The translations under genes were made by a program, and so were the position numbers. From a virus: a stretch of DNA of 64,000 nt. The notes beneath the pieces are model-generated. The model was not told the origin of the DNA, did no database searches, and saw only the letters and a list, made by a program, of their open reading frames with translations. Location: the IMG/VR virus record IMGVR_UViG_3300025450_000013, one strand, 5' to 3'. Position 1 is the stretch's first letter. Each line of letters opens with the position of its first letter. This document shows positions 20,356-39,400 of the stretch, one piece after another.

Positions 20356-22104
20356 TTAGACCTTAGGTCCGTTGATTGTACCCATATTTATATACTTAAT
20401 ATTTGAGTTACCACATATTGCGGATCCTTGAGTACCTGGTGAACCTGATGCTCCCGAAGATCCTGGTGAACCTGGTGATCCTTGAGAACCGGCATTTCCT
20501 GGATGCCCTGTTGCTCCTGGTGAACCGGCATTTCCTGGTTGACCTGATGGCCCAGAATTTCCTGCTGATCCTGGGGATCCAGCATTTCCTGGTTGACCTG
20601 AATGCCCGGCCCCACCTGTTGATCCGGCTGAACCGGCTGGACCAGGTTGACCAGAATGACCAGCTGGTCCTCCACCACCACCGCCTCCTGGATATCCTGG
20701 TTGATTTAAGTCACCGCCTCCACCACCACCATTTGGACCGGATCTACCAAAATGATGGCTGCATCCGTGATGGTTAGCAGGTTGATGACTTGCTCCGTGA
20801 TAACATCCTGAAGCGTGGTGCCCATTATATCCACAATGGGCACAATTTACTTGGCCAGCACCTTGATGATTTGCGCTATAATGTGCTGCTGGTTGGTGCT
20901 GACCCCATCCACCACCTTGATGAGAATGACCGGGAGGTCCATGAGGACCACCACAAGCACTACCGCCTGGGCCTGGAGGTATACCTGCACCACCTCCACC
21001 GCCGCCTCTATGACCGGAAGCTCCGCCGCCGCCGCCTCCAGGTCCTCCTGGTCCAGAATTTCCACCTGAACCACCTGGTCCGGCACTTCCTCCAGAACCA
21101 CCTGGTCCTGCATTTCCACCTGAACCACCTGATCCAGCATAACCGCCTACGCCACCAGGTCCGGCATTTCCACCTGAACCACCTGGACCTCCCGGACCCG
21201 CAGCTCCACCTGGTCCTCCAGATCCACCAGGACCAGATGATCCTCCAGAACCTCCTGGACCAGATGATCCTCCACTTATTGTTGATGTATTGTTGAGAAT
21301 TATACTAACACCATATACGGCACATGCTTTAAGTGATACACCACCAGGTTGCCCGGTGCCTCCTGTACCACCAGGTTGCCCGGTGCCTCCTGCACCTCCT
21401 GGTTGACCACATCCACCTCGGACACCTGAACCTCCCGGTTGACCACAACCACCTAGGCCGCCTGAACCTCCTGGTTGGCCTGCACCTCCTGGTTGACCAC
21501 AACCACCTCGGCCACCTGGTTGACCATAACCACCTGGTTGACCGTGACCACCTGTACCTCCTGTGCCTCCTGGAGTACCGCCTCCACCATGGTGGCCTCC
21601 ACCGAACCATCCGGGTCCGTGACCTCCACCACCACCAGCACCAAATGCACCTGTACCACCTGGTTGACCGTGTGCTCCTGTGTATCCTGGTTGACCGTGT
21701 GCTCCTGTACCACCTGGGTTACCGTGACGACCTGCTCCACCTGGTTGACCGTGTGACCCTGTACCACCTGGTGTACCTACAGATCCTGAACTACCTGTAG
21801 CACCTGGATTTCCTGTAGAACCTACAGATCCTGGAGCACCTGGTGTGCCTGTAGCACCTGTAGTACCAGCTGCACCTGCTATGGTTGCTGAATTTTTAAT
21901 ATAAATTAGAGTACCTGGCCTCCAACTGGAACCTGTCTGTAAAGCAGGTGTTGAAGTTGAGGTACTTCCTATGTTAGCATTGATAAAAACAAATATATTA
22001 CCAGGGTAGGATGGGCTACCTGATTGATTGTAGAGATTAACATTATTAGTCGCGGAACTAATATTAATAATTTTTGTTGGTCTGGTAATAGGAAACAAGA
22101 ACAT
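20356..22104 (-). CDS. gp38-like adhesin with long Gly-X-Y (collagen-like/polyglycine II) arms and His/Cys-rich head
   Basis: IYIKNSATIAG and IILNNTSTISGG strands and C-terminal AICGNSNIKYINMGTINGPKV resemble the gp38 scaffold; four Gly-triplet tracts. Confidence 0.7.
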   Translation of the reverse strand: MFLFPITRPTKIINISSATNNVNLYNQSGSPSYPGNIFVFINANIGSTSTSTPALQTGSSWRPGTLIYIKNSATIAGAAGTTGATGTPGAPGSVGSTGNPGATGSSGSVGTPGGTGSHGQPGGAGRHGNPGGTGAHGQPGYTGAHGQPGGTGAFGAGGGGGHGPGWFGGGHHGGGGTPGGTGGTGGHGQPGGYGQPGGRGGCGQPGGAGQPGGSGGLGGCGQPGGSGVRGGCGQPGGAGGTGQPGGTGGTGQPGGVSLKACAVYGVSIILNNTSTISGGSSGPGGSGGSSGPGGSGGPGGAAGPGGPGGSGGNAGPGGVGGYAGSGGSGGNAGPGGSGGSAGPGGSGGNSGPGGPGGGGGGASGHRGGGGGGAGIPPGPGGSACGGPHGPPGHSHQGGGWGQHQPAAHYSANHQGAGQVNCAHCGYNGHHASGCYHGASHQPANHHGCSHHFGRSGPNGGGGGGDLNQPGYPGGGGGGGPAGHSGQPGPAGSAGSTGGAGHSGQPGNAGSPGSAGNSGPSGQPGNAGSPGATGHPGNAGSQGSPGSPGSSGASGSPGTQGSAICGNSNIKYINMGTINGPKV

Positions 22105-22143: not shown

Positions 22144-22159
22144 TACTATGGAGTTTGCT

Positions 22160-23329
22160 ATGAAAATTGGTCTTATAGGTGATCATATTACCGATATTTA
22201 TATATATGGGAAAATGACTAGGTTTTCACCGGAGTCTCCTATTCCTATCTTTGACATAGAGAGAGAAGAAAGTCGTTCTGGCGGTGCTTCCAATGTCAAT
22301 AACAATCTAATGGCCCTTGGTGCTTCTGTTGATTACCACTGTGACAAAATAAACTATTCTATCAAAAAACGATATGTCTGTGACGGCCACATAATGTTCC
22401 GTGTGGATGCCGATAAGACCAGCACCGTTGATCCATGTCTTGCCGAATTTACCGAAGAAACCAAGTATGTCATCCTTTCCGACTATGGTAAGGGTATTTT
22501 GACATATAGTTCTGAAGTTATTGATAAACTGAAGCAAGATGGTAAGATCGTCATTGTTGATCCTAAAAGGCATATCAGTCATTATGAAGGTGCTGATATT
22601 GTCAAGATGAATGAGAAAGAATATTATCAGTTCTGCCCACAGGGAAAAGGTGCTTTAAAGTATTATGATATAGGAACTTTTGTGATAACCTTGGGTGGCA
22701 AAGGTGTTAGAATTATTAATGAAAATGGTGATACAACAATTCCAGGTCTAGGATTACAAGTATCTGATGTGACAGGCGCCGGTGATGTGTTCATTGCTGC
22801 TATGACATACTACCTAGCAAAAGGTAAAGACATATATCAGGCCTGTGATATTGCGAACAAGTATGCGGCTAAGTCCGTAACCAAGTTTGGTACCTATACA
22901 ATTACCGAAGATGATAAAAGAGAGATTGAAGGTAAGATAGTATTCACCAACGGTTGCTTTGATATTCTACACCGTGGCCACATTGAATATCTACAAAAGT
23001 CTAAAAAATTAGGAACTAAGTTAATTGTAGCTTTAAACTCAGATGAATCAGTTGCTAGACTAAAAGGCACTGTCAGACCACACAATAAGCAGGAAGATCG
23101 TAAGAGAGTATTAGAGGCTCTTGATTGTGTTGATGAGGTTATTATCTTTAATGGTGACACACCATATGAAATAATTAAAGATTTGAAGCCTGACATTATA
23201 ACAAAAGGTGGTGATTATAAGACTAAAGAAGAAGTGGTCGGGCATGATCTTGCTGAGGTCGTTATATTACCTTTTGTTGATGGATATTCTACTACTAAAA
23301 CATTGGAGTATATGAATGGAGATTGTTGA
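22160..23329 (+). CDS. hldE: Bifunctional heptose-7-phosphate kinase / heptose-1-phosphate adenylyltransferase
   Basis: R.SPE.P.P, GGASNV, ILSDYGKG, DVTGAGDVF (PfkB); VFTNGCFDILHRGH, KGGDY, FVDGYSTT; start 22160 after GGAG (ORF track 22148). Confidence 0.93.
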   Translation: MKIGLIGDHITDIYIYGKMTRFSPESPIPIFDIEREESRSGGASNVNNNLMALGASVDYHCDKINYSIKKRYVCDGHIMFRVDADKTSTVDPCLAEFTEETKYVILSDYGKGILTYSSEVIDKLKQDGKIVIVDPKRHISHYEGADIVKMNEKEYYQFCPQGKGALKYYDIGTFVITLGGKGVRIINENGDTTIPGLGLQVSDVTGAGDVFIAAMTYYLAKGKDIYQACDIANKYAAKSVTKFGTYTITEDDKREIEGKIVFTNGCFDILHRGHIEYLQKSKKLGTKLIVALNSDESVARLKGTVRPHNKQEDRKRVLEALDCVDEVIIFNGDTPYEIIKDLKPDIITKGGDYKTKEEVVGHDLAEVVILPFVDGYSTTKTLEYMNGDC

Positions 23330-23666
23330 GAAGAAATGGGGTAGAGAGATAATCTTTGCCAATAATGATAAGTATTGTGGTAAACTTCTTATACATGATA
23401 AATCCGGTTCTAAAGGTTCTATGCATTTCCATATGAAGAAACATGAGACCTTTTATGTCCAGAAAGGTATATTCAAGATACACTGGATTGAAACCAATGA
23501 TGCAAAGATACATAATACTATCCTTAGAGAAGGTGATACATGGGTCAATGAACCTGGGCAACCGCATCAGATTGAGGCTTTAGAGGACAACTCAACTATA
23601 ATCGAGGTATCTACAACACACTTTGACAATGACAGTTATAGAGTTATGCCAGGAGACGGTCAATGA
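23316..23666 (+). CDS. Cupin, sugar ketol-isomerase-like
   Basis: VEKKWGRE, YCGKLL, SMHFH..KHETFYV, PG.PH, EVST. Confidence 0.8.
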   Translation: MEIVEKKWGREIIFANNDKYCGKLLIHDKSGSKGSMHFHMKKHETFYVQKGIFKIHWIETNDAKIHNTILREGDTWVNEPGQPHQIEALEDNSTIIEVSTTHFDNDSYRVMPGDGQ

Positions 23667-23965
23667 AGTATATAATGGATATCGACGGAACAATCTGTAC
23701 CAATACTAATGGTGATTATGAGAAGGCAACTCCTTATCTAGACCGCATAGATTATATCAATCACCTATATGATAAAGGGCATGAGATACATTACTGGACG
23801 GCCAGAGGTGGTAACTCAAGGAGAGATTTATCAGAACTAACCAAAAAACAATTAAAAGAATGGGGATGCAAATACACCTCACTAAGATGTGATAAACCAG
23901 CATATGATTACTGGATAGATGACAAGGCATTTAATGATAGAGATTTCTTTGGAGTTAATTTATGA
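23663..23965 (+). CDS. Minimal HAD-family phosphatase
   Basis: DIDGTIC, WTARG, KP.YD..IDDKA. Confidence 0.85.
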   Translation: MKYIMDIDGTICTNTNGDYEKATPYLDRIDYINHLYDKGHEIHYWTARGGNSRRDLSELTKKQLKEWGCKYTSLRCDKPAYDYWIDDKAFNDRDFFGVNL

Positions 23966-24753
23966 TATTGATAACTGGTCATAAAGGATTTATCGGTCAA
24001 AACCTTGTTAATAGATTAAATGATAAACTCTTTTGCCTTTCTGATATTGACAGTTGCTTCAAAGACCTTTATTTAACACCTTGGGAAGATATAGAAGAAA
24101 TATGGCATATGGGTGCCATCTCTGATACTACTTGTACCGATTTAAATAAAATCCATACTTATAACATAGAATATACCATAAATCTATTTGAACTTGCTAT
24201 TCAATATAAGATACCAGTAAAGTATGCCTCGTCCGCGTCCGTGTATGGAAACACTAACTATCGTAGAGAGATTAATCCACTAAACTTCTATGCTATGTCT
24301 AAGGCTACTATTGATCGTTGGGTAATGGATAATTTATACAAGTTTGAATCTATACAAGGTTATCGTTTCTATAATGTATATGGTAAGCATGAAGACCATA
24401 AAGGTGGCCAGGCCAGTCCGATACATACATTCATCAAGCAGGCAAAAGAAACAGGAACGATTAAACTATTTGAAAACTCGGTTGCCTATATGAGAGACTT
24501 TATTTGGGTTGAAGATGTTATAAATTGTATGCTGTATGATAAACCAAGTGGTATATATGATCTAGGAACTGGAGTAGCAAGGTCGTTTGAAAGAGTGGCT
24601 GAAATCATAGCAGACAGATATAATGCCAAGTTAGAGTATGTTCCATTTCCAAAACACCTTGAAGACAAGTATCAATACTTCACTTGTTCATTAAATCACT
24701 TTGATCATACATTCACATCAATAGAGGAATATGTTAATGAAAGAGGAGTATAA
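23962..24753 (+). CDS. hldD: ADP-L-glycero-D-manno-heptose 6-epimerase-like SDR
   Basis: ITGHKGFIG, H.GAISDT, YASSASVYG, PLN.YA.SK, R.YNVYG..E.HKG..AS, RDFIWVEDV, YQYFT. Confidence 0.88.
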   Translation: MILITGHKGFIGQNLVNRLNDKLFCLSDIDSCFKDLYLTPWEDIEEIWHMGAISDTTCTDLNKIHTYNIEYTINLFELAIQYKIPVKYASSASVYGNTNYRREINPLNFYAMSKATIDRWVMDNLYKFESIQGYRFYNVYGKHEDHKGGQASPIHTFIKQAKETGTIKLFENSVAYMRDFIWVEDVINCMLYDKPSGIYDLGTGVARSFERVAEIIADRYNAKLEYVPFPKHLEDKYQYFTCSLNHFDHTFTSIEEYVNERGV

Positions 24754-25348
24754 AGAGATTGCACCTGGCTGGTTATGGCAGTCTAATGTCACTAGTGATC
24801 TTATGAAATATGATGAGAACTATGTAAAACCATACACTAAGTATGATGATACTCTCTCATATATTAGACTCAACTTTTGTCAAAAGTATGCCAAGTTTTA
24901 TTCGGTTCTTGATGTTGGATATGGCGACGGTAACTTTCTCAAAGTATGTAATCGTGAAGGATACAAATGTTTTGGTAATGATATATCAGGATATTCTTTA
25001 TCAGACGGAATAACTTTTACTGAAAATAGAAATATACCTGTTGACCTTGTTACGTTCTTTGATTGTATTGAACACTTTCCACAAGAAAATGTTGAAGAGG
25101 TATTAAAAGAACTAAATTGTAAGTATATCTGCATTTCGATTCCTTGGTGTCATTTTGATAATTTTGAAATATGGAAACACCGCAAGCCTAATGAACATTT
25201 CCATCATTTTGGTGTTAGAGGTGTTACTGAGTTATTGAATAGAGGTGGGTTTGATTTGATTGTTTCTGCTTCAATTGAAGATCAAGTTAGGTCAAACAAA
25301 GGCGGAATACCAAATATTTTAACTGTTATTGGAAAGAAAAGATGTTAA
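24731..25348 (+). CDS. Class I SAM-dependent methyltransferase
   Basis: VLDVGYGDGNF, FFDCIEH, EHFHHF. Confidence 0.85.
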   Translation: MLMKEEYKEIAPGWLWQSNVTSDLMKYDENYVKPYTKYDDTLSYIRLNFCQKYAKFYSVLDVGYGDGNFLKVCNREGYKCFGNDISGYSLSDGITFTENRNIPVDLVTFFDCIEHFPQENVEEVLKELNCKYICISIPWCHFDNFEIWKHRKPNEHFHHFGVRGVTELLNRGGFDLIVSASIEDQVRSNKGGIPNILTVIGKKRC

Positions 25349-26022
25349 ATTTATATTATTCGCATAGGACAGATGTTGAAAAAGCATACATTATTACAAT
25401 AAAGGGTAATAATATGTCCGAAAAATATTCAAAAAGATGTCAAGAATCGTGTAAAAATGTTGGTATGCAATATCAAGTATGGGACGCATTTGATGGAACT
25501 GGTGATGAAATAATAATACCAGAACACTCTAAGAATAATCCCATTTTTAAAATGGTGAAAATACAAGATCATCATATGACAAAAAGTGAACTTAGTTGTT
25601 TTCTTAGTCATTTAAGTTTATGGGCTAGATGTGTCGAGATAGACCAACCAATAGTTATACTTGAACATGATGCTATAATGGTAAAAAAGTTTGAAAATAA
25701 AACTAGTTATAATTCTATTGTATATCTTGGTTGTGAAATATGGGCAAAAAAAGGATCTAATATAGAAGATATTCCAATATATGGATCTGGTGGAATGAAT
25801 AATCTTTATATATATAAAGGACATGCATATTGTATAGATCCACAAGTTGCTAAGAATATGTTATCAGATGTTTTTAAGCGTGGTATATGGACAATTGCAG
25901 ATAGATTTATGAAAGCAGATTTATATAACATAACTCATCAAGGATTATATGCTTTTGAAAATAAATTTAACGATGAAGATTCTACTATAGTTCCAAGAGA
26001 GAAAGATGAATATACATGTTAG
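25342..26022 (+). CDS. Glycosyltransferase family 25-like
   Basis: AYIITI, DAFDG, E.SCFLSH..LW, IVILEHDA, HAY.I.P..AK. Confidence 0.8.
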   Translation: MLNLYYSHRTDVEKAYIITIKGNNMSEKYSKRCQESCKNVGMQYQVWDAFDGTGDEIIIPEHSKNNPIFKMVKIQDHHMTKSELSCFLSHLSLWARCVEIDQPIVILEHDAIMVKKFENKTSYNSIVYLGCEIWAKKGSNIEDIPIYGSGGMNNLYIYKGHAYCIDPQVAKNMLSDVFKRGIWTIADRFMKADLYNITHQGLYAFENKFNDEDSTIVPREKDEYTC

Positions 26023-26852
26023 ATGAAAATATGCAAAATTATTTAAGTCATATGTTTGACATGGTTAGTGATTTAAGAGACTTAAAGTTATATGAAAGAA
26101 CCAATACATCTAAGAATCCTTTAAATCATTATGGTCGTAGGGCTTTCAGTCAGTCAGACGAAGATGGTATTACACAAGAGATTATGAAACGTATAGGAGT
26201 TGATAATGGAGTTTTTGCTGAATTTGGAGTAGGATCAGGTTTAGAATGTAATACATTATTGTTAGCTGGATTAGGTTGGTCAGGGTTTTGGGTTGACGCT
26301 GGAAACATATTACCTAAAATTGAACAATCTGCAAATCCAAAATTTTCATTTTTTAAACGTCATATAACATTAAATAACGTATTAGAAACATACTTACAGT
26401 GTTTGAAATATATTAATAAAGAAGAAACAGATTTTATTTCTTTTGATTTTGAAGGTAATGATTATTATTTAATTGAGAGATTATTGCAATCTGGAGTATC
26501 TCCTAAAGTATTCGTAGTTGAATATAACGCTAAATTTATACCACCCATTGAATGGAAAGTTAAATATCATGAAAATCTAATATGGGAATATGATGATTAT
26601 TTTGGTGCTTCTCTTATGTCATATGTTAAATTGTTTGAAAAACATAATTATTTTCTTGCATGTTGTAATAGTTTTACAGGAGCAAATGCTTTCTTTATTA
26701 AAAACAAATATAAAGAATTTTTTAGTGATATTCCAAAATCAATCAATGATATTTGGGTTGAGCCTAGATATTATATTACTAAAAAGTATGGTCATAAGAG
26801 TTCTGTTAGGACTGTAGAATTGTTGCTTAATAATTTAAACTCTTGTCAATAA
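26016..26852 (+). CDS. FkbM-like methyltransferase
   Basis: FSQSDEDGI, EFGVG.G.ECNT, SFDFEGNDY, P.V.VVEYN, YFGASL, G.NAFF. Confidence 0.75.
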   Translation: MLDENMQNYLSHMFDMVSDLRDLKLYERTNTSKNPLNHYGRRAFSQSDEDGITQEIMKRIGVDNGVFAEFGVGSGLECNTLLLAGLGWSGFWVDAGNILPKIEQSANPKFSFFKRHITLNNVLETYLQCLKYINKEETDFISFDFEGNDYYLIERLLQSGVSPKVFVVEYNAKFIPPIEWKVKYHENLIWEYDDYFGASLMSYVKLFEKHNYFLACCNSFTGANAFFIKNKYKEFFSDIPKSINDIWVEPRYYITKKYGHKSSVRTVELLLNNLNSCQ

Positions 26853-28053
26853 CAGATATCCAATCACCCATCTTCTGTTGACGCCAAACAGTAACATCAG
26901 GAAACCAATCTGATTTACCTCCGTTTTCGGCAGCACACCAAGTAAAATAACCAACCACAATATCATAAAGATATGTTTTAATACCTAATGCGCCAGCAGC
27001 GACCGAAACGCTTGAACTACTGGTATAACACATTTTACACAAGCTAAGAATAGCAAGCGTATCATCCCAATCTTTTATATCTTTTGTTAAATCAATTACG
27101 CCTTCTGGACATGTTTCTGCTCCCATACAAACAGAAATTAGTGTTCCTTGGTGCTTAATCTTATCAATAAGGTATTCAATTGGTATTGTTCTCAGATCAT
27201 TTTCTGAGTGTTCTTTATCACCCGTCCAATTTAAAGCAATTAAATTGTCATACATTTTAAGTTTTTGTTTCCACTTTGCTAGATAAACTGGATTAGGTTC
27301 TAAATATTTTTCATTACCAGGTTTTTCTACTTTCAAATTAAATGGTAAACTCATAGAAGGTACCCAATAATCATATTTGATTGTTGGATCTACTGGAAAA
27401 ACTTTAAAGTTTCTTGATATAACATTCTTTAAACTATTATCAGTGTAGTAATATACAAAAGCACCCATGTCTTTTAACATAGGAATCCATCTACTGAATA
27501 TCATTTCGTCGCCAAGCCCAGCTTCTCCTATGACGCATATTTTAGATCCTTTAATATTTTGATAACCAAACCATCTATCTACATTTGGAGGAGGAAGTTT
27601 TTCATTAGTCCAAAACGCACCATTTCTTCCAATCTCCGTTTCAATAAACGCTTCTTTAAATTTACCCTTTCTGTGTAAAAACCATCCTATATCTAAGTGT
27701 TTATCCTCACATTCTATTTGATTGTTTTTGATATACTCGTAACCTTCGTCATATCTACCAAGTCTAGTTAGATATTGAGCGTATTGCCTTATATCCGTTT
27801 TATCTTTAGATTTAGTTATATCCATGTATTCTTGAAATAGTTCTAAAGATTTGTCAATTTCACAAAGATTGTAATGACAAATTGCTGAATTTTTAAGAAC
27901 ATCAGGATGTCTATATTCTAATAAATCTAATGTTAGTAGATTCTGATTAATAGACTCCCGAAACATTTTTTTATTATAATATTCTATTGATAATGATTCG
28001 GAAGCCTCAACAGATTTATTTATTTGAAAAGTATTCATCAATCGCTCTATCAA
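26827..28053 (-). CDS. TPR + GT-B glycosyltransferase (GT9-like)
   Basis: Helical N-terminus; EAGLGDEMIFSRW, DYWVPSMSLP, LNWTG, WDDTLAIL, AGALG, WFP...WRQ...GDW. Confidence 0.78.
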   Translation of the reverse strand: MIERLMNTFQINKSVEASESLSIEYYNKKMFRESINQNLLTLDLLEYRHPDVLKNSAICHYNLCEIDKSLELFQEYMDITKSKDKTDIRQYAQYLTRLGRYDEGYEYIKNNQIECEDKHLDIGWFLHRKGKFKEAFIETEIGRNGAFWTNEKLPPPNVDRWFGYQNIKGSKICVIGEAGLGDEMIFSRWIPMLKDMGAFVYYYTDNSLKNVISRNFKVFPVDPTIKYDYWVPSMSLPFNLKVEKPGNEKYLEPNPVYLAKWKQKLKMYDNLIALNWTGDKEHSENDLRTIPIEYLIDKIKHQGTLISVCMGAETCPEGVIDLTKDIKDWDDTLAILSLCKMCYTSSSSVSVAAGALGIKTYLYDIVVGYFTWCAAENGGKSDWFPDVTVWRQQKMGDWISVIDKSLNY

Positions 28054-29734
28054 TATCTACTTGACTATATCTCGGCGGTTTGTGAACCTGAACCAATATT
28101 TTAGTCAAAGCAGCAACATTATTATAATTATTAAGAGAGAAAGAAACATCCTCTTGTGTAGCTTTGTTTTTTTCAAACATTTCTAACCAATTCGTATTGT
28201 AGATATATTCAACTAAACAAACCTCTATATCTATATTATTTTGAAGACATAGAATTGCTTCTGAAGGAGCTTTAGAGAATTTATCCATACAAAATTTCAT
28301 ATCAAACATTTTAAATGTGTCTGGATGAATTAATCTTTTATGTGTCGGATCAATCAAAGCCAAATCACTACGATGATGTGGAACTTGAATTTCCCAAATT
28401 GCACCATGTTTACTGATTCTATACATTTCCTTAATGACATTAACTGTATCATCAAGATGTTCAATTATATCTTTAGCGACAATGTGATCGTATTCACCAT
28501 CAGGAATGTCCCAATTTTTAGAATTGAGATCCACAATTCTATCTGGTCTTACTATTGGAGAATAATCAACATTATCATAACCTTTCACTTTATCAAAACC
28601 ACAACCAAGGTTTATCTTTTTACATTCTTTATCACAGCTTGGTAGGTCGATGTGTTTTAAATTAAACTCATTTTCAAGATCTTGATACATTTCCTGAAAC
28701 ACATCATTCCATTTTGTTGGATTAGTTTGCCTATAAACCCTAACAGATTTATAAAATGGTGAAGTTTTTGATTCTGGAGCACCAAGAGTCCATGTGTGAT
28801 AAGGGAGCGTTGGTGTGAATACCCAAGTCTCTTTACCAAGAGCAGCTGCCGCATGAGCGATACTTGTGCAAGAGGTTATAATAAGATCCAATTGTGATAA
28901 TGCAGAAAGAGTGTCTTCCCATGAAATTAATAGATATTGAAGATCAGTTATATTTTCAGGAAGAATTTGTAGATTATGATCTCTCTGTAGGCTATAGATA
29001 TCCAAATCTTCATGTTTAGCAAGGTTTATCATAAACTCTGGAGGAAATCTACGAAACTGTTGATGTTCAAATTTTGGATTACCAGACCATCTAATTCCAA
29101 CTTTTTTCTTTCCATTATTTTTAATAATGGAAGACCAAACTTCATAAGAAGAAGGTATCGGAGATAGATATGGTTCATTTGGTAAATTATCATATGTATG
29201 ACCTAAAACCCAACCAGCACTGAAACCCGGAATCCAGTAATCATGTTGGACCGTATGTGATTGGTCTCTCTGAATAACACCATCTACGCCAGGAACTCTT
29301 GTGAAAATTGAAGCAATTTCAGGAGCAGCTGCTAAATAAACCTTATTGGCTCCTAATTTTTTTGCAGTTTGTGCAAAACGAGAATGAATAATTTCATCGC
29401 CATAACCACCTTCAAGAGAGATGATAATAGATTTTCCTTTAATATCATGTTCTTCTGGATTGTATATTGGTGCAGAAGTTTGTAGATGACCACTACCGTA
29501 GACGTTAATGAATCTACCAGATTCTAAAAGTTGAGAACCTTCACGATAATTTCCTTGCTGTAAAAGAAACCAACCTCTGTTGAAATTATGTCTAAGCCAC
29601 ATCTCAGGATTTTTATTTCCTTGCGGGTCAAGAATATTATCTTTACCCAAAGCCTGTAATTTTTCAGATATTTTCCAACCTTCTTCAAACTCACCCTTTA
29701 ACATATGCTCAAGTTGCAAATCAATATCATGCAT
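28016..29734 (-). CDS. GT9-like glycosyltransferase fused to a C-terminal SAM methyltransferase
   Basis: EGGYGDEIIHSRF, VGIRWSGNP, WEDT...LDLIITSCTSIAHAAAALGK; then INLGCG, DIIEHL, EMYRI, VPH, DPTH. Confidence 0.85.
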   Translation of the reverse strand: MHDIDLQLEHMLKGEFEEGWKISEKLQALGKDNILDPQGNKNPEMWLRHNFNRGWFLLQQGNYREGSQLLESGRFINVYGSGHLQTSAPIYNPEEHDIKGKSIIISLEGGYGDEIIHSRFAQTAKKLGANKVYLAAAPEIASIFTRVPGVDGVIQRDQSHTVQHDYWIPGFSAGWVLGHTYDNLPNEPYLSPIPSSYEVWSSIIKNNGKKKVGIRWSGNPKFEHQQFRRFPPEFMINLAKHEDLDIYSLQRDHNLQILPENITDLQYLLISWEDTLSALSQLDLIITSCTSIAHAAAALGKETWVFTPTLPYHTWTLGAPESKTSPFYKSVRVYRQTNPTKWNDVFQEMYQDLENEFNLKHIDLPSCDKECKKINLGCGFDKVKGYDNVDYSPIVRPDRIVDLNSKNWDIPDGEYDHIVAKDIIEHLDDTVNVIKEMYRISKHGAIWEIQVPHHRSDLALIDPTHKRLIHPDTFKMFDMKFCMDKFSKAPSEAILCLQNNIDIEVCLVEYIYNTNWLEMFEKNKATQEDVSFSLNNYNNVAALTKILVQVHKPPRYSQVDIDRAIDEYFSNK

Positions 29735-29788: not shown

Positions 29789-32700
29789 TTATCTTGTCAA
29801 TCCAACTGCTGTAAAACTGAAACTAGCGGATACAGCCGCCCAACTACTGCTTCCCAATTGCGTAGGAGAAAAGACGTTTCCTGAAATAGTTCCATTACCT
29901 AATTCTCCATAACCAGAACTATTATAACCCCATACAAATAAAGCACTGTCGGATCTTATACCATAGCTAGAATATTGACTAGCATAAACAGCTGTCCAAC
30001 TACTATTTCCTATTTTTGTAGGTGATGTTATGGTACTTCCTCTTGCTGGATTTCCAGTGTAAGCTGCTCCACCAGTATATAGTGCGCCATTGTTACCAAT
30101 TGCGGCAGCAGTTGAACCACCGTTGCAGTTTGGTATAAAGCTAAACCCTGTACCAATTTGTGTTGGAGAACTGAGAATAAAAGTTGATGTATCGGTTCCT
30201 CCCAAATAATTAGATCCACTAGATGCATTAAGACCAGTACCAAATAAAACACCATCTATTCTTAACATCCAACTAGAATAATCTCCACTACTGCCGTTTT
30301 GGATACAAACAGCAGTCCACGAACTTGTTCCAATTTGAACAGGTGATGAATAGGAGGTGAGATTACCAGTACCTAAATATCCATATCCCCAGTAAGCTTG
30401 ATATCCCCATCCCCATAATGTACCATCTAATTTAATTCCTAAAGAACCGAAGCCACCACAAGAAACAGCTTTCCATGAACTTGTTCCAATTTGAACAGGT
30501 GATGAATATGTAGTAGCATTGTTGGTTCCTAGAGTGTTATAAAAATTATAACCCCATCCCCATAATGTCCCGTCTGCTCTAATTGCAAGCGCACAACTAC
30601 TTCCAACAGACACTAATGTCCAAGAACTAGTTCCAACCTGAACAGGTGATGAATAAAATGCAGTTGCAGTATTAACACCCAATGCTCCAGATGCATTGTA
30701 ACCCCATGAAAATAGGCTTCCTCCGCTTCTAATTCCTGCGGATTGATTAACACCTGTGGATATTGAAGTCCAACTACTAGTACCTACTTGGACAGGAGAA
30801 GATACATATGTATATTGTGCTATATTCTGACCAAGTTCTCCACCTGCATTGTAACCCCAAGACCATAAAGTATTATCCGCTCTTATTGCTAAAACATGAC
30901 AATAACCAACGGATACTGATTTCCAACTACTAGTACCTACTTGAACAGGAGAATAATATGATAAATTGTTATTCTGTCCTAATTGCCCGTATGCTCCGTT
31001 ACCCCATCCAAACAAAGCACCATCGTTTCTGATAGCAAAATTTGCATATAGTCCTAAACTAATTGCTGACCAACTGTTAGTTCCAAGTTGAGCCAAAGAT
31101 CCAGTAACATCAGTTGCTAGAGCACCATAAGTACTTGTACCCCATGCCCATAAAGAACCATCAGTAGTTACGCCAAGCACATGCGCATGGCCTAATGACA
31201 CAGCATTCCATGAACTTGTTCCAATCTGGACTGGAGATGAAGTTGCTGTAGTGTTTCCATTACCAAGTTGATAAAAAACATTATATCCCCATGCCCATAA
31301 TGTCCCATCTGCTCTAATTGCTACTGTTGTTCCGCTAACATTATTACCATTTAATCCTAAAACTTTCCAACTATTTGTTCCTACTTGAACTGGAGTTTGA
31401 ACTACTAAAGTACTGTTTAATCCTAGCGAACCGTTTGTGTTGGATCCCCACATAAAAAGACCACCATCTGATCTAATTGCACCAACATGAGAAGCACCAG
31501 CCGCAACAGAAGTCCAACTACTTTTTGATATTTGGTATGGAGCGTCCGAAAATGCCTGTCCTGATATAAGAGTAGTATAACCCCAAGACCATAAAGTATT
31601 ATCCGAACTTATTGCTAAAGCTGTGCTATGTCCTATAGAAACAGCTTTCCATGAACTTGTTCCAATCTGGACTGGAGAGTTTATTGTAGTAGGTATAATT
31701 CTTCCAACTGTAATCGTATTACCACCATAACCACCCCAAGTATAAAGAGCTCCTAAAGAATCAATAACTCCACCACCACAAAAATTATCAGTATTACCTG
31801 AACCACCTCCAGTTGGAAGCACAGACCAGCTGGAGGTTCCTATTTGTACTGGAGAAGATATAGAAAAAATACCAGCACCACCGCCTACCGCTGAGTTGAT
31901 AGCGCAAGTTTGAAACAACAATCCATCAGTTCTTAGAAGTAAACTAGAATAACCACCAAGAACTGATACAGCTTTCCACGAACTTGTTCCGATTTGAACA
32001 GGTGATGAATATGTAGTAGCATTATTAGTACCTAACTGACCGTATGTATTGGTTCCCCACGCAAACAAAGCACCATCAGATCTGATGGCCATCACTGTTG
32101 ATAAAGAAACACTCACAGATGTCCAACTACTTGTTCCGATTTGAACAGGTGATGATTGAGTCGTTATGCTATTAGTACCTAAAGTTCCAGTACCGCCGTA
32201 TCCCCAAGTAAATAAAGCACCATCAGATCTGATAGCTGAAGAAACCCAAAAACTGGCTGAAATAGCTTTCCATGAACTTGTTCCAATTTGCGAAAATGAT
32301 CCCCTATTAACCAAATCATTGGTACCTAACTGACCGTATGTTGCTTGTGCTCCAGTGGCAAACAAACCACCATCAGATCTGATAGCCATTGTATATGAAT
32401 AACCACAAGAGACAGCTGTCCAACTACTGAAACCAATTTGAGATAATGTTTGAATTGTAGTTCCTGCTGGAGATCCCAATTGAGCGCCAACTCCCCATGT
32501 AAATAAAGATCCAGTAGAATTTATTGCTCCTGCAATAGCACTATTTCTAAAATCTCCTATAACATATACACCTGCTGGCTGACTGAAATTTCCTGTTGAA
32601 ATTTGTACAGGAGAGGATTGATTAGTACTAGTTCCAGTACCAACTGTATAAGAAATGTTGGCACCCCAACCCCATAAACTAAAATCACCAGCCCTCACCG

Positions 32701-34078
32701 CAAAAAGTGCGTTATCATAATTACTTCCGGTATTACTTAATCCGATAGCCACCCAGCTACTTGCTCCAACCTGAACAGGTGATGATTGATTCGTTGTGTT
32801 ATTATTACCTAATTCACCAGCTGAACCATAACCCCAAGTCCATACTGTATTATCTGCTCTTAATGCTATTGCACTATTAAAACCAGACATTATAGCTTTC
32901 CATGAACTTGTTCCAACCTGAACAGGCGATGAATATGAAGTAGTATTATTTGTTCCGAGAGTAGGATAAAAACTTTGGCTTCCCCAAGCAAATAAAGCAC
33001 CGTCTACCCTGATCGCATGCCCATAAGTTCCACCAGTATTATCCCCAACACTTGCCATTACCCAACTACTTGTTCCAACATGAGTTGGTAATGTAACGTA
33101 TGATGAATTTGTTGGTGTATAAGTAGTATAACCCCAAAAAAATAAAGCACCAGTTGTTGTTATACCGACGGTTGTTGAACTAGCGGCTGCTATACTCGAC
33201 CAACTACTTGTTCCAATCTGGACTGGAGATGAATAGTTAGTATTAACACCATTACCAAGCTGCCATACGTTATTATTACCCCATGCCCACAGTGTTCCGT
33301 CTGATCTAATTGCGTATGTTTGTAATGTTCCACAAGAAACAGCTTTCCATGAACTTGATCCAATTTGAATAGGGGATGCATACGTTAAAGTGTTATTAAC
33401 ACCTAACTGACCGCTACTACCAATACCCCATCCCCATAAAGAACCATCTGATCTTATTGCCATTGTATGACTAGTGCCAGAAGATACTGATTTCCAACTT
33501 AAATTTCCTATCTGTGTTGGTGTGTAACCAGCATTTAAACCTAACTGACCGGAATTGTTATTACCACATCCCCACAAAGTATTATCTGATGCAATTGCAC
33601 AGGCATGAGAGTCACCTCCGGAAACAGCTTTAAAACTCATTCCGACTCCAATTTGAATTGGAGATGAAGTTGATGTAGTGTTTCCATTACCAAATTGGTA
33701 ATAAGTATTAAAACCCCATGCCCACAGTGTTCCGTCAGTTTTTATTCCATAACCAGTTGATGAACCGATAGAAACAGCTGTCCAGCTTGTGGAACCAGGA
33801 GAAGGAGCCTTTGTTGCTATAAAAAGTAAACCTTGACCTAAAGTGTAATTGTTAGTGGCACCCCATGTGAACAAAGCACCATCAGATCTAATTGCCGCTG
33901 TAACGTTTAATCCTGCACTGACTACAGACCAACTACTTGTTCCAATTAAAACAGGCGATGAATAGCTAGTAGTAGTTCCATAACCAATAGTTCCTGATGT
34001 TCCACGACCCCAGGTAAATAGATTTTTTTTAGTAGAACCTCCAGAACTTGATTTTAATAATAGTTCATGTAATAGCAT
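29789..34078 (-). CDS. RCC1/BLIP-II repeat beta-propeller protein (28 repeats), putative fibre tip
   Basis: Repeated AIRSDG.L..WG.N..G.LG...SSPVQIGTSSW..VS.G; follows a fibre and chaperone. Confidence 0.9.
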   Translation of the reverse strand: MLLHELLLKSSSGGSTKKNLFTWGRGTSGTIGYGTTTSYSSPVLIGTSSWSVVSAGLNVTAAIRSDGALFTWGATNNYTLGQGLLFIATKAPSPGSTSWTAVSIGSSTGYGIKTDGTLWAWGFNTYYQFGNGNTTSTSSPIQIGVGMSFKAVSGGDSHACAIASDNTLWGCGNNNSGQLGLNAGYTPTQIGNLSWKSVSSGTSHTMAIRSDGSLWGWGIGSSGQLGVNNTLTYASPIQIGSSSWKAVSCGTLQTYAIRSDGTLWAWGNNNVWQLGNGVNTNYSSPVQIGTSSWSSIAAASSTTVGITTTGALFFWGYTTYTPTNSSYVTLPTHVGTSSWVMASVGDNTGGTYGHAIRVDGALFAWGSQSFYPTLGTNNTTSYSSPVQVGTSSWKAIMSGFNSAIALRADNTVWTWGYGSAGELGNNNTTNQSSPVQVGASSWVAIGLSNTGSNYDNALFAVRAGDFSLWGWGANISYTVGTGTSTNQSSPVQISTGNFSQPAGVYVIGDFRNSAIAGAINSTGSLFTWGVGAQLGSPAGTTIQTLSQIGFSSWTAVSCGYSYTMAIRSDGGLFATGAQATYGQLGTNDLVNRGSFSQIGTSSWKAISASFWVSSAIRSDGALFTWGYGGTGTLGTNSITTQSSPVQIGTSSWTSVSVSLSTVMAIRSDGALFAWGTNTYGQLGTNNATTYSSPVQIGTSSWKAVSVLGGYSSLLLRTDGLLFQTCAINSAVGGGAGIFSISSPVQIGTSSWSVLPTGGGSGNTDNFCGGGVIDSLGALYTWGGYGGNTITVGRIIPTTINSPVQIGTSSWKAVSIGHSTALAISSDNTLWSWGYTTLISGQAFSDAPYQISKSSWTSVAAGASHVGAIRSDGGLFMWGSNTNGSLGLNSTLVVQTPVQVGTNSWKVLGLNGNNVSGTTVAIRADGTLWAWGYNVFYQLGNGNTTATSSPVQIGTSSWNAVSLGHAHVLGVTTDGSLWAWGTSTYGALATDVTGSLAQLGTNSWSAISLGLYANFAIRNDGALFGWGNGAYGQLGQNNNLSYYSPVQVGTSSWKSVSVGYCHVLAIRADNTLWSWGYNAGGELGQNIAQYTYVSSPVQVGTSSWTSISTGVNQSAGIRSGGSLFSWGYNASGALGVNTATAFYSSPVQVGTSSWTLVSVGSSCALAIRADGTLWGWGYNFYNTLGTNNATTYSSPVQIGTSSWKAVSCGGFGSLGIKLDGTLWGWGYQAYWGYGYLGTGNLTSYSSPVQIGTSSWTAVCIQNGSSGDYSSWMLRIDGVLFGTGLNASSGSNYLGGTDTSTFILSSPTQIGTGFSFIPNCNGGSTAAAIGNNGALYTGGAAYTGNPARGSTITSPTKIGNSSWTAVYASQYSSYGIRSDSALFVWGYNSSGYGELGNGTISGNVFSPTQLGSSSWAAVSASFSFTAVGLTR

Positions 34079-36438: not shown

Positions 36439-39400
36439 CTAGAATTGTGTCAACGAAGCAAGAACTGTATAAGTTGCTGAACCTGTCTTTACTATGGTGT
36501 ATGTGTAAACATCTATACCATTAGAATTACCAGAACTAGGAGGGGATGCTCCTTGCCAGTAAGGAGTAACCGACGTACCATCAATTTGGAATCCTGTTTG
36601 ATAATATGCTATTGCACCTTGTGTGGCCATAAATGCTAATGTTACGGTACTTCCGATATTTACTGCTGCATTGTATGTTGAACCTAACCATCCAACATTT
36701 ATTGTCCAGTTAGCTGTAGAGTTTGCTGTGTAATAAATAATAGATCCTTGGTTTGGATTAAAACTTATAGTTCCTGTTGCACCAGAAGCAACGATCTTAG
36801 TAGTTTCCATTACACTGTTAGCAACCATATTAGGTATGGTAACAGTTCCTGAGAATGTGGCACCGCTTAGTGGTGCATAACCACTTGAGGATGTATTGGC
36901 AGAATAACCAGAAGGAGATGCCTGAACCCATTGGGATCCGTTTGTATCGGTATAGTAGATAAACAAAATTCCTGTATTACTATCCCACCACATATTACCA
37001 ACACTAGGTGAAGAAGGTGGTGTAGAACCAACATTGACAGAAGAACCTGAACCTGTGGATATAACATTTCCATTTATAAGAATGTTAGCAGCATTAATGG
37101 TACCATTAACGTCTAGTTTATAACCAGCAGTTGTTCTACCAATAGCAACGTTACCAGGAATATATAAATCGCCTGCAAGAGAAACACCAGAGGTATTCTG
37201 TAATGCGGTGTTTGCCACACCAAAGGCCGCATTAATAACACCAAAGGCACTATTAACTGCCGTATAAGTTGTATTGGTAAGACCAAAAGCAGCAATAGTG
37301 TTGGTTGATACACCATTAGCAAAACCAAAAGCGGCAGCACCATTAGTTGAAGTATAAGCATTATTTGCCACACCAAAGGCCGCATTAATAACACCAAAGG
37401 CACTATTAACTGCCGTATAAGTTGTATTGGTAAGACCAAAGGCCGCAGCACCATTTGCTATAGTATAAAATGTAGCATTGGCATAATTGTTTGCATTAGT
37501 ACCTACAGTATTAGCATATACGTTTGACCAGTTATTGGCACCAATACCAGCATTTACAACGTCTGTATTGGATGCAATATAGGTTGTAATAGGTGCTGCA
37601 TCATTAGAGGTAAATGACCAAGCATTTGCAGACTCAATCCATAGAATTGCCGCATTAGAGTTTCTTGCACCCCTATTAATTTCTATACCAGCATTTTCTA
37701 CAGGAACAACACTACTAGGAATATCGGCATTTAGAGTAATCATATTATCGCCGATATACAAGTTACTTGTATTCAGGGATGTAGAAAGTCCTGAAATGGT
37801 AAGGTTACCTTGAACGACAAGATCCCCTGTAATGGTATCACCGGCCTTCTTTACATAGGTAGAACCAGCATATGTATTAGCATTGTTGGCAACTGTACCT
37901 GCTTGGTTAGCAGCACCAAATGCGGCATTTGCAATTGTACCTGCTCCGTTTGCCATAACACCGGCATAATTATTTGCTGATGTGGCAATTGTGTTGGCGT
38001 ATGTATTAGCATTAACACCAACGGTATTAGAGTAAACATTAGACCAGTTATTTGTTGAAGCAAACGATGGAACAACATTTACGCCATTGACAACCAATGC
38101 GTTTGCTATATTAGCAGTACCAGCAACATCCAACTTATACTGTGGATTTGTTGTACCGATACCAACATTGGCACCACCAACAGAATCCTGAATACGCATA
38201 GCTTCGTTTGATGCTAAAGTTCCACGAACGAAGAATGAAACATATTTGTTTGTTACTGATGTATTGGCAGTACCAATTGAGAGAGCACCATCAGATGTAT
38301 AAACATATCCGTCATCTGCACCGTTGATTGTCCAACCTGCCTGATTATATCCGGAACTATTGATACCAACGTCAATAAAGTTTGTAGTATCTGTACCGTT
38401 ATCGGCAGTTGCAACCAAGTCAGATGAAGAACCAACACCGTTTGTTGCGTTGCGGATATTCAACTGAGTTGTAAAGTTTGATGTACCTTCAGCATCAAAG
38501 ATAGCACCGGCAAGTGTGGTTGATGTGGCACTACCTGTAATAATTTGAACTGGATATGCAGGATTTGCTGTACCAAGACCAATGTAACCAGATGGTGTCA
38601 AAGACATAAGAATGTTTGTACCAACACCACCAGCAAAGAATTGTAGGCCATCGGATGTACCGACACTGATACGACCATTGCCTGTTACATAATCAACAAC
38701 AATACCATCTGTAAATGAACCGGTGAAATTATTTCCTGAATATAGACCGTTATTAGCAGTAATATAACCAGTATGAATTAGATTTCCGTTAAATACAGTG
38801 CCACTGGTATTTGATAATTTTGTTGATGCATAACCATTGGCACTATTGGCCATAACACCTGCATAGTTATTAGCTGCTGCTACTGAATTATTGACATATG
38901 GATAATCCATACCAGGGCTTACAGCAACATTTGCAGCGGAAGTCAAACGACCATAGGCATCAACAGTAATTACTGGAATTGATGTAGAACCACCATATGT
39001 AGCTGCTGTAACACCAGTAGAAATTAGATTGATTGTAGGTGTTGTACCACCAGAGCTAAAGATTTGTCCTGATGTACCAGTAACGGATGCTACTTTGGTT
39101 GCAGCAACGGCATTTGCAGCATTGGCCATTGCACCAGCATAACCATTAGCACTATTAGCCATAGCACCAGCATAATTGTTTGCAGATGTGACACCTACTT
39201 GTGCAATATCGTTGGCCGCAGCACCAACTGATACTGCATATCCATTAGAGGAGTTAGCCATAACACCAGCATAGTTGTTTGCTGCTACGGCAATTGTGTT
39301 AGCATATGAATTAGCATATACCGCAACCTGATTGGCCAAAGAGTTGGAACTATTGGCCATAGAACCGGCAAAGTTATTAGCAGATCCGGCAGATGTTGCT

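Follow-up and report, generated by a model that had tools for sequence, protein, structure and literature searches.

ADP-heptose is made by a textbook four-enzyme pathway, which both serves as an antibiotic-adjuvant target and gives rise to an innate-immune signal; GmhA has been taken as the only entry point to its synthesis. The C-terminal cupin of CapF is a nucleotide-sugar epimerase domain, and the substrate of CapF is a UDP-4-keto sugar that a dehydratase supplies. A phosphatase that acts in phage sugar activation has also been described: AfhF of phage HY126 (PDB 9iqw) is a Mg-dependent enzyme that cuts the 5-phosphate of D-arabinofuranose-1,5-bisphosphate before UDP-arabinose is formed, according to PMC13326640 (citing He et al. 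2026, doi 10.1038/s41589-026-02150-z). Here we analyze four overlapping genes in a 64,000-nucleotide stretch of the IMG/VR virus record IMGVR_UViG_3300025450_000013 (hereafter the window), which encode an HldE-like protein, a small metal-binding cupin, a 100-amino-acid HAD phosphatase (mini-HAD), and an HldD-like protein. On comparative grounds we propose, with a probability of roughly 60%, that these genes constitute a self-sufficient, GmhA-independent pathway to ADP-L-glycero-beta-D-manno-heptose, with the cupin acting in place of GmhA and the mini-HAD in place of GmhB.

The four genes lie on the + strand, with the hldE-like gene (positions 22148–23329) sharing 14 nucleotides with the cupin gene (23316–23666), which shares 4 with the HAD gene (23663–23965), which in turn shares 4 with the hldD-like gene (23962–24753). 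The first-pass annotation of this DNA had described a cupin and a 100-amino-acid HAD with a DIDGT motif that overlap each other and their neighbors between hldE and hldD, and the open reading frames (ORFs) are as it described them. It had also reported neither a SIS-fold GmhA nor a canonical GmhB, and here too our searches agreed: phmmer queries with E. coli GmhA and GmhB returned no match at E ≤ 10 among the 277 six-frame ORFs of at least 50 amino acids in the window, from which we conclude that no SIS-type GmhA and no canonical GmhB is encoded within these 64 kb.

Outside the window, we scanned prokaryotes at one genome per species and located the cupin in 59 loci. About 20 loci of Woesearchaeota, Nanoarchaeia, and candidate phyla radiation (CPR) bacteria had the gene order cupin–hldD–kinase–GmhB–adenylyltransferase, and a Comchoanobacterales genome had the order hldE–hldD–cupin–gmhB. 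In none of 73 cupin loci did we find a match to E. coli GmhA within 10 kb. For a phyletic test we searched 251 genomes of the DPANN phylum around genome G017 with the cupin profile, the HldE-kinase model, and SIS_2, and scored 57 of them as positive for the HldE kinase (score >200 bits). Among these, SIS_2 was present in 2 and lacking in 13 of the 15 genomes with the cupin, versus present in 31 and lacking in 11 of the 42 genomes without it (Fisher p = 1.1e-4); when only kinases scoring at least 295 bits were considered, the corresponding fractions with SIS_2 were 2/12 and 33/35 (p = 7.6e-7). One of the 15 cupin-positive genomes (G288) is unpublished, and the count without it is 2/14; G025 and G027 are also unpublished, and no conclusion depends on any of the three. 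A GmhA-specific model identified an ortholog-level GmhA in only one of the 15 cupin-positive genomes (G251), where the gene resides in a second, canonical cluster on another contig, and gave matches of 96–226 bits in all 10 of the cupin-negative genomes tested. GT9 heptosyltransferases were found in five of five genomes without SIS_2. Among bacteria, an HldE kinase accompanied the stand-alone cupin in five of five cases, and no GmhA was found in the isolate Marinoscillum pacificum, which has a stand-alone cupin.

The cupin and SIS_2 also alternate at the C terminus of the same kinase. A 510-amino-acid protein (L077) joins an HldE-type PfkB kinase to a C-terminal SIS_2 domain, as confirmed with Pfam, and matches to the kinase and SIS_2 occurred in one reading frame of 506–527 amino acids in five genomes (G144, G214, G265, G191, and G176). 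In other proteins the PfkB kinase carries a C-terminal cupin instead (L075, 439 amino acids; L076, 443 amino acids; P0264–P0269), the examples beyond L075 and L076 being metagenomic proteins of 424–458 amino acids, one of which belongs to a Parcubacteria genome. The cupin-fused kinases scored 330–351 bits on TIGR02198, much like the SIS_2-fused ones. At locus L076, genes for a GT9 heptosyltransferase, the kinase–cupin fusion, and an adenylyltransferase–GmhB fusion follow in order, such that two proteins would hold all four activities, provided that the cupin is the isomerase. Other fusions join the cupin to the mini-HAD, an FkbM-type methyltransferase, or HldD (records P0243–P0259 of 219–240 amino acids, P0245, P0252, and L044); the HAD–cupin fusions make up ~17 protein clusters, and both of the two that we checked against the window HAD were indeed HAD–cupin. 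Nearly every cassette member therefore has a form fused with the cupin.

In phages, the association of the cupin with heptose genes is similarly consistent. The cupin adjoins hldE in 12 of 14 IMG/VR relatives, with hldD alongside in 11 of those 12, and its adjacency to hldE in so many relatives argues that the arrangement is not due to chance; besides the kinase, nucleotidyltransferase, phosphatase, and epimerase, the cupin is the sole conserved member of the cassette. We found 35 GenBank phage records with a cupin 38–46% identical to that of the window, five of which are uncultured marine virus contigs; the cultured cyanomyoviruses include P-SSM2, S-CAM1, S-SSM7, S-SM2, P-TIM68, Bellamy, and S-T4. 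In P-SSM2 the order is adenylyltransferase, kinase, a 114-amino-acid protein named 'phosphoheptose isomerase', and a 'cysteine dioxygenase' (the cupin), followed by a convergent epimerase gene. By the first-pass annotation's own criterion, its idea would fail if canonical gmhA and gmhB turned up elsewhere and invariably accompanied these genes, and where we made the comparison this was not the case: SIS_2 is missing from the complete genomes of both P-SSM2 and S-CAM1, a relative of 165 kb that is 99% complete (G001) has neither a SIS_2 nor a SIS domain, and among HldE-positive DPANN genomes the cupin and GmhA largely exclude each other.

The cupin itself, at 116 amino acids, has at least 1,649 relatives of similar length, all ~115–130 amino acids. 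An alignment of 44 of these sequences had 22 invariant positions, among which were the metal ligands H37, H39, E44, and H84, as well as K6, K23, K42, E97, S99, T100, D106, and R109; the invariant basic, serine, and threonine residues could hold a sugar phosphate. The window protein scored 28.4 bits on Cupin_2 (cut-off 27.2 bits) and matched phrog_7851, and it combines the His/His/Glu...His ligands with the double-stranded beta-helix that characterize the cupin superfamily; its AlphaFold2 model is a single all-beta cupin barrel (predicted local distance difference test score of 96.7). In Pfam and NCBIfam it matched cupin models only, and neither of the SIS-fold models of GmhA (PF13580 and TIGR00441). 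A link to mannose-6-phosphate isomerases came from other members of the family. The kinase-fused cupin of P0266 scored 28.8 bits on PF01050, above the Pfam cut-off of 23.6 bits, and hhalign aligned the cupin family with the cupin of an archaeal NTP_transferase–MannoseP_isomer fusion at 97.1% probability (E 5.6e-11), with nearly all invariant residues in common (motifs WG.E, SMH.H..K.ET, H, E.ST, and D..R). We examined whether NTP_transferase–cupin fusions of this kind (L070 and L073) belong to heptose clusters; they do not, their neighbors being housekeeping genes, and we therefore treat them as an outgroup.

The 100-amino-acid HAD protein had no Pfam match. It has the full set of four superfamily motifs on a Rossmannoid core: DIDGT, T46-A-R, K78, and D86-D87. 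Across its relatives there is no variation at D6, D8, T10, T46, K78, or D87, and hardly any at D86. More than 600 of these relatives are 93–110 amino acids long, which indicates that the protein is whole and not truncated. Its best PDB relatives were 9iqw (E 2.5e-11, 33% identity, Z 13.0), which is AfhF, and 1xpj. In structural alignments made with VIA-align, the T4 Pnkp phosphatase and GmhB followed at Z 8–9 (GmhB 3l8h at Z 8.5), with E. coli GmhB at 6.8. The mini-HAD scored 25 bits on TIGR01689 (cut-off 162 bits), although it is a clear homolog of 9iqw and 1xpj, and 17.6 bits on the HAD-IIIA model TIGR01662 (cut-off 44.6 bits), and it matched neither GmhB model (TIGR00213 and PRK08942). The contrast that the first-pass annotation had drawn between this HAD and GmhB therefore needs rewording, in that a canonical GmhB is indeed missing, but what takes its place is another, smaller HAD family and not a different fold. 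By analogy, the AfhF reaction is the exact counterpart of the GmhB step, and in two sister phages (L001 and L007) a GmhB-type HAD (PRK08942, 123 bits) occupies the same slot. We considered whether the cyanophage 'phosphoheptose isomerase' was a real GmhA and rejected this idea, as the 114-amino-acid P-SSM2 protein is 51% identical to the window HAD and is itself a mini-HAD.

The HldE-like protein (393 amino acids), a predicted bifunctional heptose-7-phosphate kinase/heptose-1-phosphate adenylyltransferase, is shorter than E. coli HldE and has both domains (PfkB at 78 bits and CTP_transf_like at 67 bits in Pfam; phrog_8133 and phrog_7878 in PHROGs). Its best NCBIfam models were all those of HldE, with scores below the curated cut-offs (PRK11316, 292 versus 521 bits; TIGR02198, 181 versus 345 bits; TIGR02199, 165 versus 181.5 bits). 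The HldD-like protein (263 amino acids), a predicted ADP-heptose 6-epimerase, best matched TIGR02197 at 215 bits, also below the cut-off (274.6 bits). HldD uses S116, Y140, and K144 together with a second base, K178 (E. coli numbering), and in our alignment all four residues were retained. The protein also has a deletion of ~24 residues after the first Rossmann strand, following the first beta-alpha-beta unit, in a stretch that we read as dinucleotide-binding; phage relatives and the Comchoanobacterales homolog share this deletion, and the catalytic residues are kept.

From gene content, residues, folds, synteny, phyletic pattern, and fusions, we infer the following activities and acceptor. 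The metal-dependent cupin would first convert sedoheptulose-7-phosphate to D-glycero-D-manno-heptose-7-phosphate, which is the GmhA reaction and would be the seven-carbon equivalent of the conversion of fructose-6-phosphate to mannose-6-phosphate. The PfkB domain of the HldE-like protein would then phosphorylate C1, the AfhF-type mini-HAD would take off the 7-phosphate (the GmhB step), the adenylyltransferase domain would produce ADP-D,D-heptose, and the HldD-like short-chain dehydrogenase/reductase (SDR) would epimerize C6. The product would then probably be methylated and transferred by the neighboring GT9-like and GT25 enzymes, possibly to adjacent fiber-like proteins. We predict an isomerase role for the cupin because of its complementarity with GmhA, its fusions to the kinase, its synteny, its homology to cupins of the mannose-6-phosphate isomerase type, and the missing SIS step. 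The first-pass annotation had suggested that the cupin and the HAD replace the GmhA and GmhB steps, and complementarity, fusions, the shared HAD slot, and kinship with AfhF all speak for that suggestion, the support being comparative throughout.

Several observations weigh against this proposal. Some concern the phyletic test: most of the genomes are incomplete metagenome-assembled genomes (MAGs) of unknown completeness, and three of the 15 cupin-positive genomes (G251, G266, and G139) carry some SIS_2-type protein. Furthermore, 11 of the 42 cupin-negative, HldE-positive genomes had no SIS_2, and the five of them tested with the GmhA-specific model were also negative; in two controls, Caulobacter vibrioides and Synechococcus elongatus, we found HldE and GT9 but no SIS_2 (E ≤ 1e-8), TIGR00441, or cupin. 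Such genomes and controls imply that undetected isomerases exist, and thus that absence of SIS_2 is no proof. The genomes with an HldE-type kinase and neither a detectable GmhA nor the cupin (G195, G112, G055, G264, and G289) either are incomplete MAGs or have a third kind of heptose-7-phosphate source. For phages, the hosts could supply GmhA. Other observations concern the mini-HAD, which is absent from six of the closest phage relatives, two of which have a GmhB-type HAD; in the other four, no HAD was found in the stretch examined, and a mini-HAD search across the whole G001 record likewise returned no match. Loss of gmhB is leaky in E. coli, which would fit phage relatives that lack a HAD. 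The remaining points concern the cupin, for which the window protein had no PF01050 match at E ≤ 0.01 (cut-off 23.6 bits), and they bear most directly on an alternative in which this protein is not an isomerase.

In that alternative, the cupin would be a CapF/WbuC-like epimerase or tailoring enzyme whose substrate is either ADP-heptose or a keto intermediate that the HldD-like SDR forms, thereby diverting the pathway to a different heptose, with the isomerase coming from the host or being an unrecognized enzyme. We regard this main rival, which for the cupin corresponds to the diversion to a different sugar that the first-pass annotation gave as its alternative, as unlikely, although it has some observations in its favor. 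The top structural neighbor of the cupin was the C-terminal cupin of CapF (Z 16.4, root-mean-square deviation 1.8 Å over 111 residues, 22% identity), ahead of a plateau at Z 14–15 that included KdgF, quercetinase, and Thermococcus phosphomannose isomerases of 104–110 amino acids (Z 14.6–14.8), and of D-lyxose isomerase and the cupin phosphoglucose isomerases at about Z 13.8. With CapF at 16.4 and so many others at 14–15, the order of structural matches is not enough to tell an isomerase from an epimerase. WbuC (TIGR04366) was the best NCBIfam model for all 44 members of the cupin alignment, each of which matched it weakly (best E 4.4e-8), versus seven of 44 that matched GMP_PMI; the window cupin itself scored 28.9 bits on the WbuC model, well short of the cut-off of 42. 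The cupin adjoins hldD in many clusters, with one cupin–HldD fusion (L044:9980–11236), and the methyltransferases of the operon point to sugar tailoring.

An epimerase, however, would leave unexplained the origin of heptose-7-phosphate in genomes where the kinase, phosphatase, adenylyltransferase, and GT9 are present and GmhA is lacking, as well as the mutual exclusion of cupin and GmhA and the presence of the cupin in place of SIS_2 at the C terminus of the kinase. In P-SSM2 the cupin gene is co-directional with those of the adenylyltransferase, kinase, and HAD, whereas the epimerase gene is on the other strand. Two genomes differed in whether an HldD accompanies the cupin: an HldD-like gene adjoins the cluster of G131, and G107, which encodes a kinase–cupin fusion, has only a weak SDR match (132 bits for the best match to an HldD model). 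Moreover, the cassette has no dehydratase that would provide a released 4-keto substrate, and its SDR keeps K178 of HldD.

A second alternative, which we consider quite improbable, retains a ketol-isomerase role for the cupin but changes the sugar: the cassette would activate another sugar phosphate, such as a pentose or hexose, for modification of DNA or protein, as in the phage UDP-arabinose pathway. The cupin has relatives of the mannose-6-phosphate isomerase and lyxose isomerase types, all three homologs of heptose enzymes score below the NCBIfam equivalog cut-offs, and the nearest characterized relative of the HAD acts on arabinose-1,5-bisphosphate (PMC13326640). The flanking proteins nonetheless find their best models specifically in HldE domains I and II and in HldD, with the catalytic set including K178 kept, and a pentose or hexose pathway would leave the 6-epimerase without a substrate. 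In addition, GT9-like transferases of the ADP-heptose type are linked to the cassette in phages and archaea, the phosphatase in cellular clusters is a canonical GmhB, and the arabinose pathway, as PMC13326640 summarizes it, relies on a kinase and a pyrophosphorylase of other folds and on a SIS isomerase. Least probable of all is a cupin with no catalytic role in sugar activation (a metal-binding or regulatory protein or an unrelated oxygenase, in keeping with the name 'cysteine dioxygenase') that travels with the cassette as a linked passenger, for although cupins are functionally very diverse, sequence searches of the PDB returned generic cupins only (oxalate decarboxylase and dioxygenases at E ~1e-4) and left function uninformed, and the gene stands apart from the heptose genes in some bacteria (L018 and L029), a passenger would account neither for co-occurrence with the HldE kinase (15/18 cupin-positive versus 42/233 other genomes, p = 2e-8), which extends to bacteria with a stand-alone cupin, nor for the fusions to kinase, HAD, and epimerase, nor for 22 invariant residues that include the full metal site.

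The proposed heptose pathway is embedded in a larger operon. The DNA of the window represents the structural region of a marine T4-like myovirus, and PHROG scans of it identified a portal protein, a tail sheath protein, a large terminase, and proteins of the baseplate wedge; the nearest cultured relatives of the portal are those of Pelagibacter phage Mosig (58.5% identity), Methylophilales phage Melnitz, and cyanomyoviruses. The 10 kb around the heptose cassette had no megablast match among GenBank phages, indicating that the window does not come from a deposited cultured phage. Seven overlapping + strand genes make up the operon, which has a collagen-like gene on one side and a giant RCC1-repeat gene on the other. 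Downstream of the hldD-like gene it encodes an S-adenosylmethionine-dependent methyltransferase (24731–25348; Methyltransf_23, E 3.7e-11; phrog_6564), a GT25-family glycosyltransferase (25342–26022; Glyco_transf_25, E 2.9e-16), and, as its last gene, an unassigned 278-amino-acid protein (orf278, 26016–26852). For orf278 we found no Pfam match at E ≤ 1 except one at chance level (14.6 bits, E 0.038) and no NCBIfam or PHROG match at the thresholds used. Neither Pfam (E ≤ 1) nor BLASTP against a cupin–FkbM fusion supported an identification of orf278 as an FkbM-like methyltransferase. Directly upstream of the operon, and divergent from it, is the gene for a 582-amino-acid collagen-repeat protein (20356–22104, − strand), whose repeats lift the local G+C content to 50%, versus ~36% for the window. 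The GT25 family includes collagen glycosyltransferases, and its gene here sits in the operon beside the collagen-repeat gene. The tail/baseplate region of the window also has two giant ORFs on the − strand, one of 2208 amino acids matching phrog_358, of unknown function (48490–55116), and one of 1865 amino acids with no PHROG match (36439–42036).

Two − strand genes between the operon and the RCC1-repeat gene are candidates for using the product. The first, convergent on the operon, encodes a protein with TPR and GT9-like domains (26827–28053; weak TPR_2 match) that is a candidate heptosyltransferase, and the second a GT9-like N-terminal domain fused to a methyltransferase (28016–29734; Methyltransf_11/23 at residues 386–456). 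Both proteins match the same stretch of L002 and L005 and thereby share a domain of ~300 amino acids, which hhalign aligned with GT9 at 93.6% probability (E 2e-7, residues 208–306 with WaaF 179–286), corresponding to the nucleotide-sugar (C-terminal) half of GT9 heptosyltransferases. The GT9-like/methyltransferase gene is syntenic with the heptose cassette in six related records (L002, L005, and L009–L012), and RCC1-repeat genes flank the cassette in related phages. In the window, the RCC1-repeat gene (29789–34078, − strand) encodes a protein of 1429 amino acids (phrog_4219, phrog_7220, and phrog_16766) that, from its context, is a possible sugar acceptor. The GT9-like genes are constant companions of the cassette and of RCC1-repeat genes in related phages, which suggests heptosylation of virion proteins. 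A contig binned as part of a Caulobacter sp. MAG (L034) has the order adenylyltransferase–cupin–kinase–hldD together with a close homolog of the phage GT9-like/methyltransferase gene, and may represent phage DNA that ended up in a bacterial bin.

In a broader and more tentative version of our proposal, the cupin, of the mannose-6-phosphate isomerase type, might be a second, independently evolved sedoheptulose-7-phosphate isomerase; marine T4-like phages with the mini-HAD, model cyanophages among them, might make ADP-heptose from a central metabolite without host lipopolysaccharide genes and heptosylate their own fiber-like proteins through GT9-like enzymes; and many DPANN archaea and CPR bacteria, along with some free-living bacteria, might have the cupin as their only ADP-heptose isomerase. 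In the open-access literature we found no paper describing a cupin heptose isomerase. If the proposal is true, a cupin that carries out the GmhA step would be a clean case of fold replacement, and organisms and phages that have been scored as lacking gmhA would be heptose-competent, which would change how their genomes are read. A common annotation mistake would be put right as well. Cyanophage entries in GenBank/RefSeq, like PHROGs, label the mini-HAD 'phosphoheptose isomerase', and public records give the cupin the names 'cysteine dioxygenase' or 'putative nucleotidyltransferase'; misnamed records include L083:4661–5005 (P-SSM2 PSSM2_311), L084:4682–5005 (S-CAM1), phrog_1238, and phrog_7851. 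The identity between the P-SSM2 protein and the window HAD shows that the database name 'phosphoheptose isomerase' is wrong, and on the basis of annotation a phosphoheptose isomerase has been listed among the host-derived or auxiliary genes of cyanophages (PMC7378029). Because cultured systems carry the cupin (P-SSM2, as PSSM2_312; S-CAM1; and Marinoscillum pacificum), the prediction is easily testable.

Compared with GmhA (SIS fold; PF13580 and TIGR00441), the cupin shares the proposed reaction, the place in the pathway, the neighborhood of HldE kinase, GmhB, HldD, and GT9, and the fusion position at the C terminus of the PfkB kinase. The proteins themselves differ throughout, GmhA being an alpha/beta SIS protein of ~190 amino acids and the cupin an all-beta barrel of 116 amino acids with a His/His/Glu/His metal site and no sequence match to GmhA. 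Cupin-type mannose-6-phosphate isomerases (PF01050; Thermococcus 7zvy and 7zvm) are homologous to the cupin and similar to it in size and fold (7zvy at Z 14.8), and they convert a ketose phosphate to a manno-aldose phosphate, as proposed here; the proposed substrate of the cupin, by contrast, is one carbon longer, with its phosphate on C7, and its partners are heptose genes and not GDP-mannose genes. CapF and WbuC (TIGR04366) resemble the cupin in being small metal cupins, linked to SDRs, in polysaccharide clusters, but no dehydratase accompanies the cupin, and complementarity with GmhA would be unexpected for an epimerase.

For the phosphatase, GmhB (HAD-IIIA; TIGR00213 and PRK08942) is of the same superfamily as the mini-HAD, is likewise capless, and occupies the same cassette slot in sister phages and archaea, but it has ~180–190 amino acids compared with ~100, and E. 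coli GmhB gave no phmmer match to the mini-HAD. Closer in size are AfhF, 1xpj, and the EcbF/BcbF capsule phosphatases (TIGR01689), capless HADs of which the group including the mini-HAD spans ~100–134 amino acids; AfhF and the mini-HAD are both phage-encoded. AfhF has been shown to strip a sugar-1,omega-bisphosphate of its distal phosphate ahead of nucleotidyl transfer (PMC13326640), and we propose the same for the mini-HAD. The mini-HAD departs from this group in being ~30 residues shorter and in having partners of the HldE and HldD types, and given these partners its substrate should be heptose-1,7-bisphosphate and not arabinose-1,5-bisphosphate.

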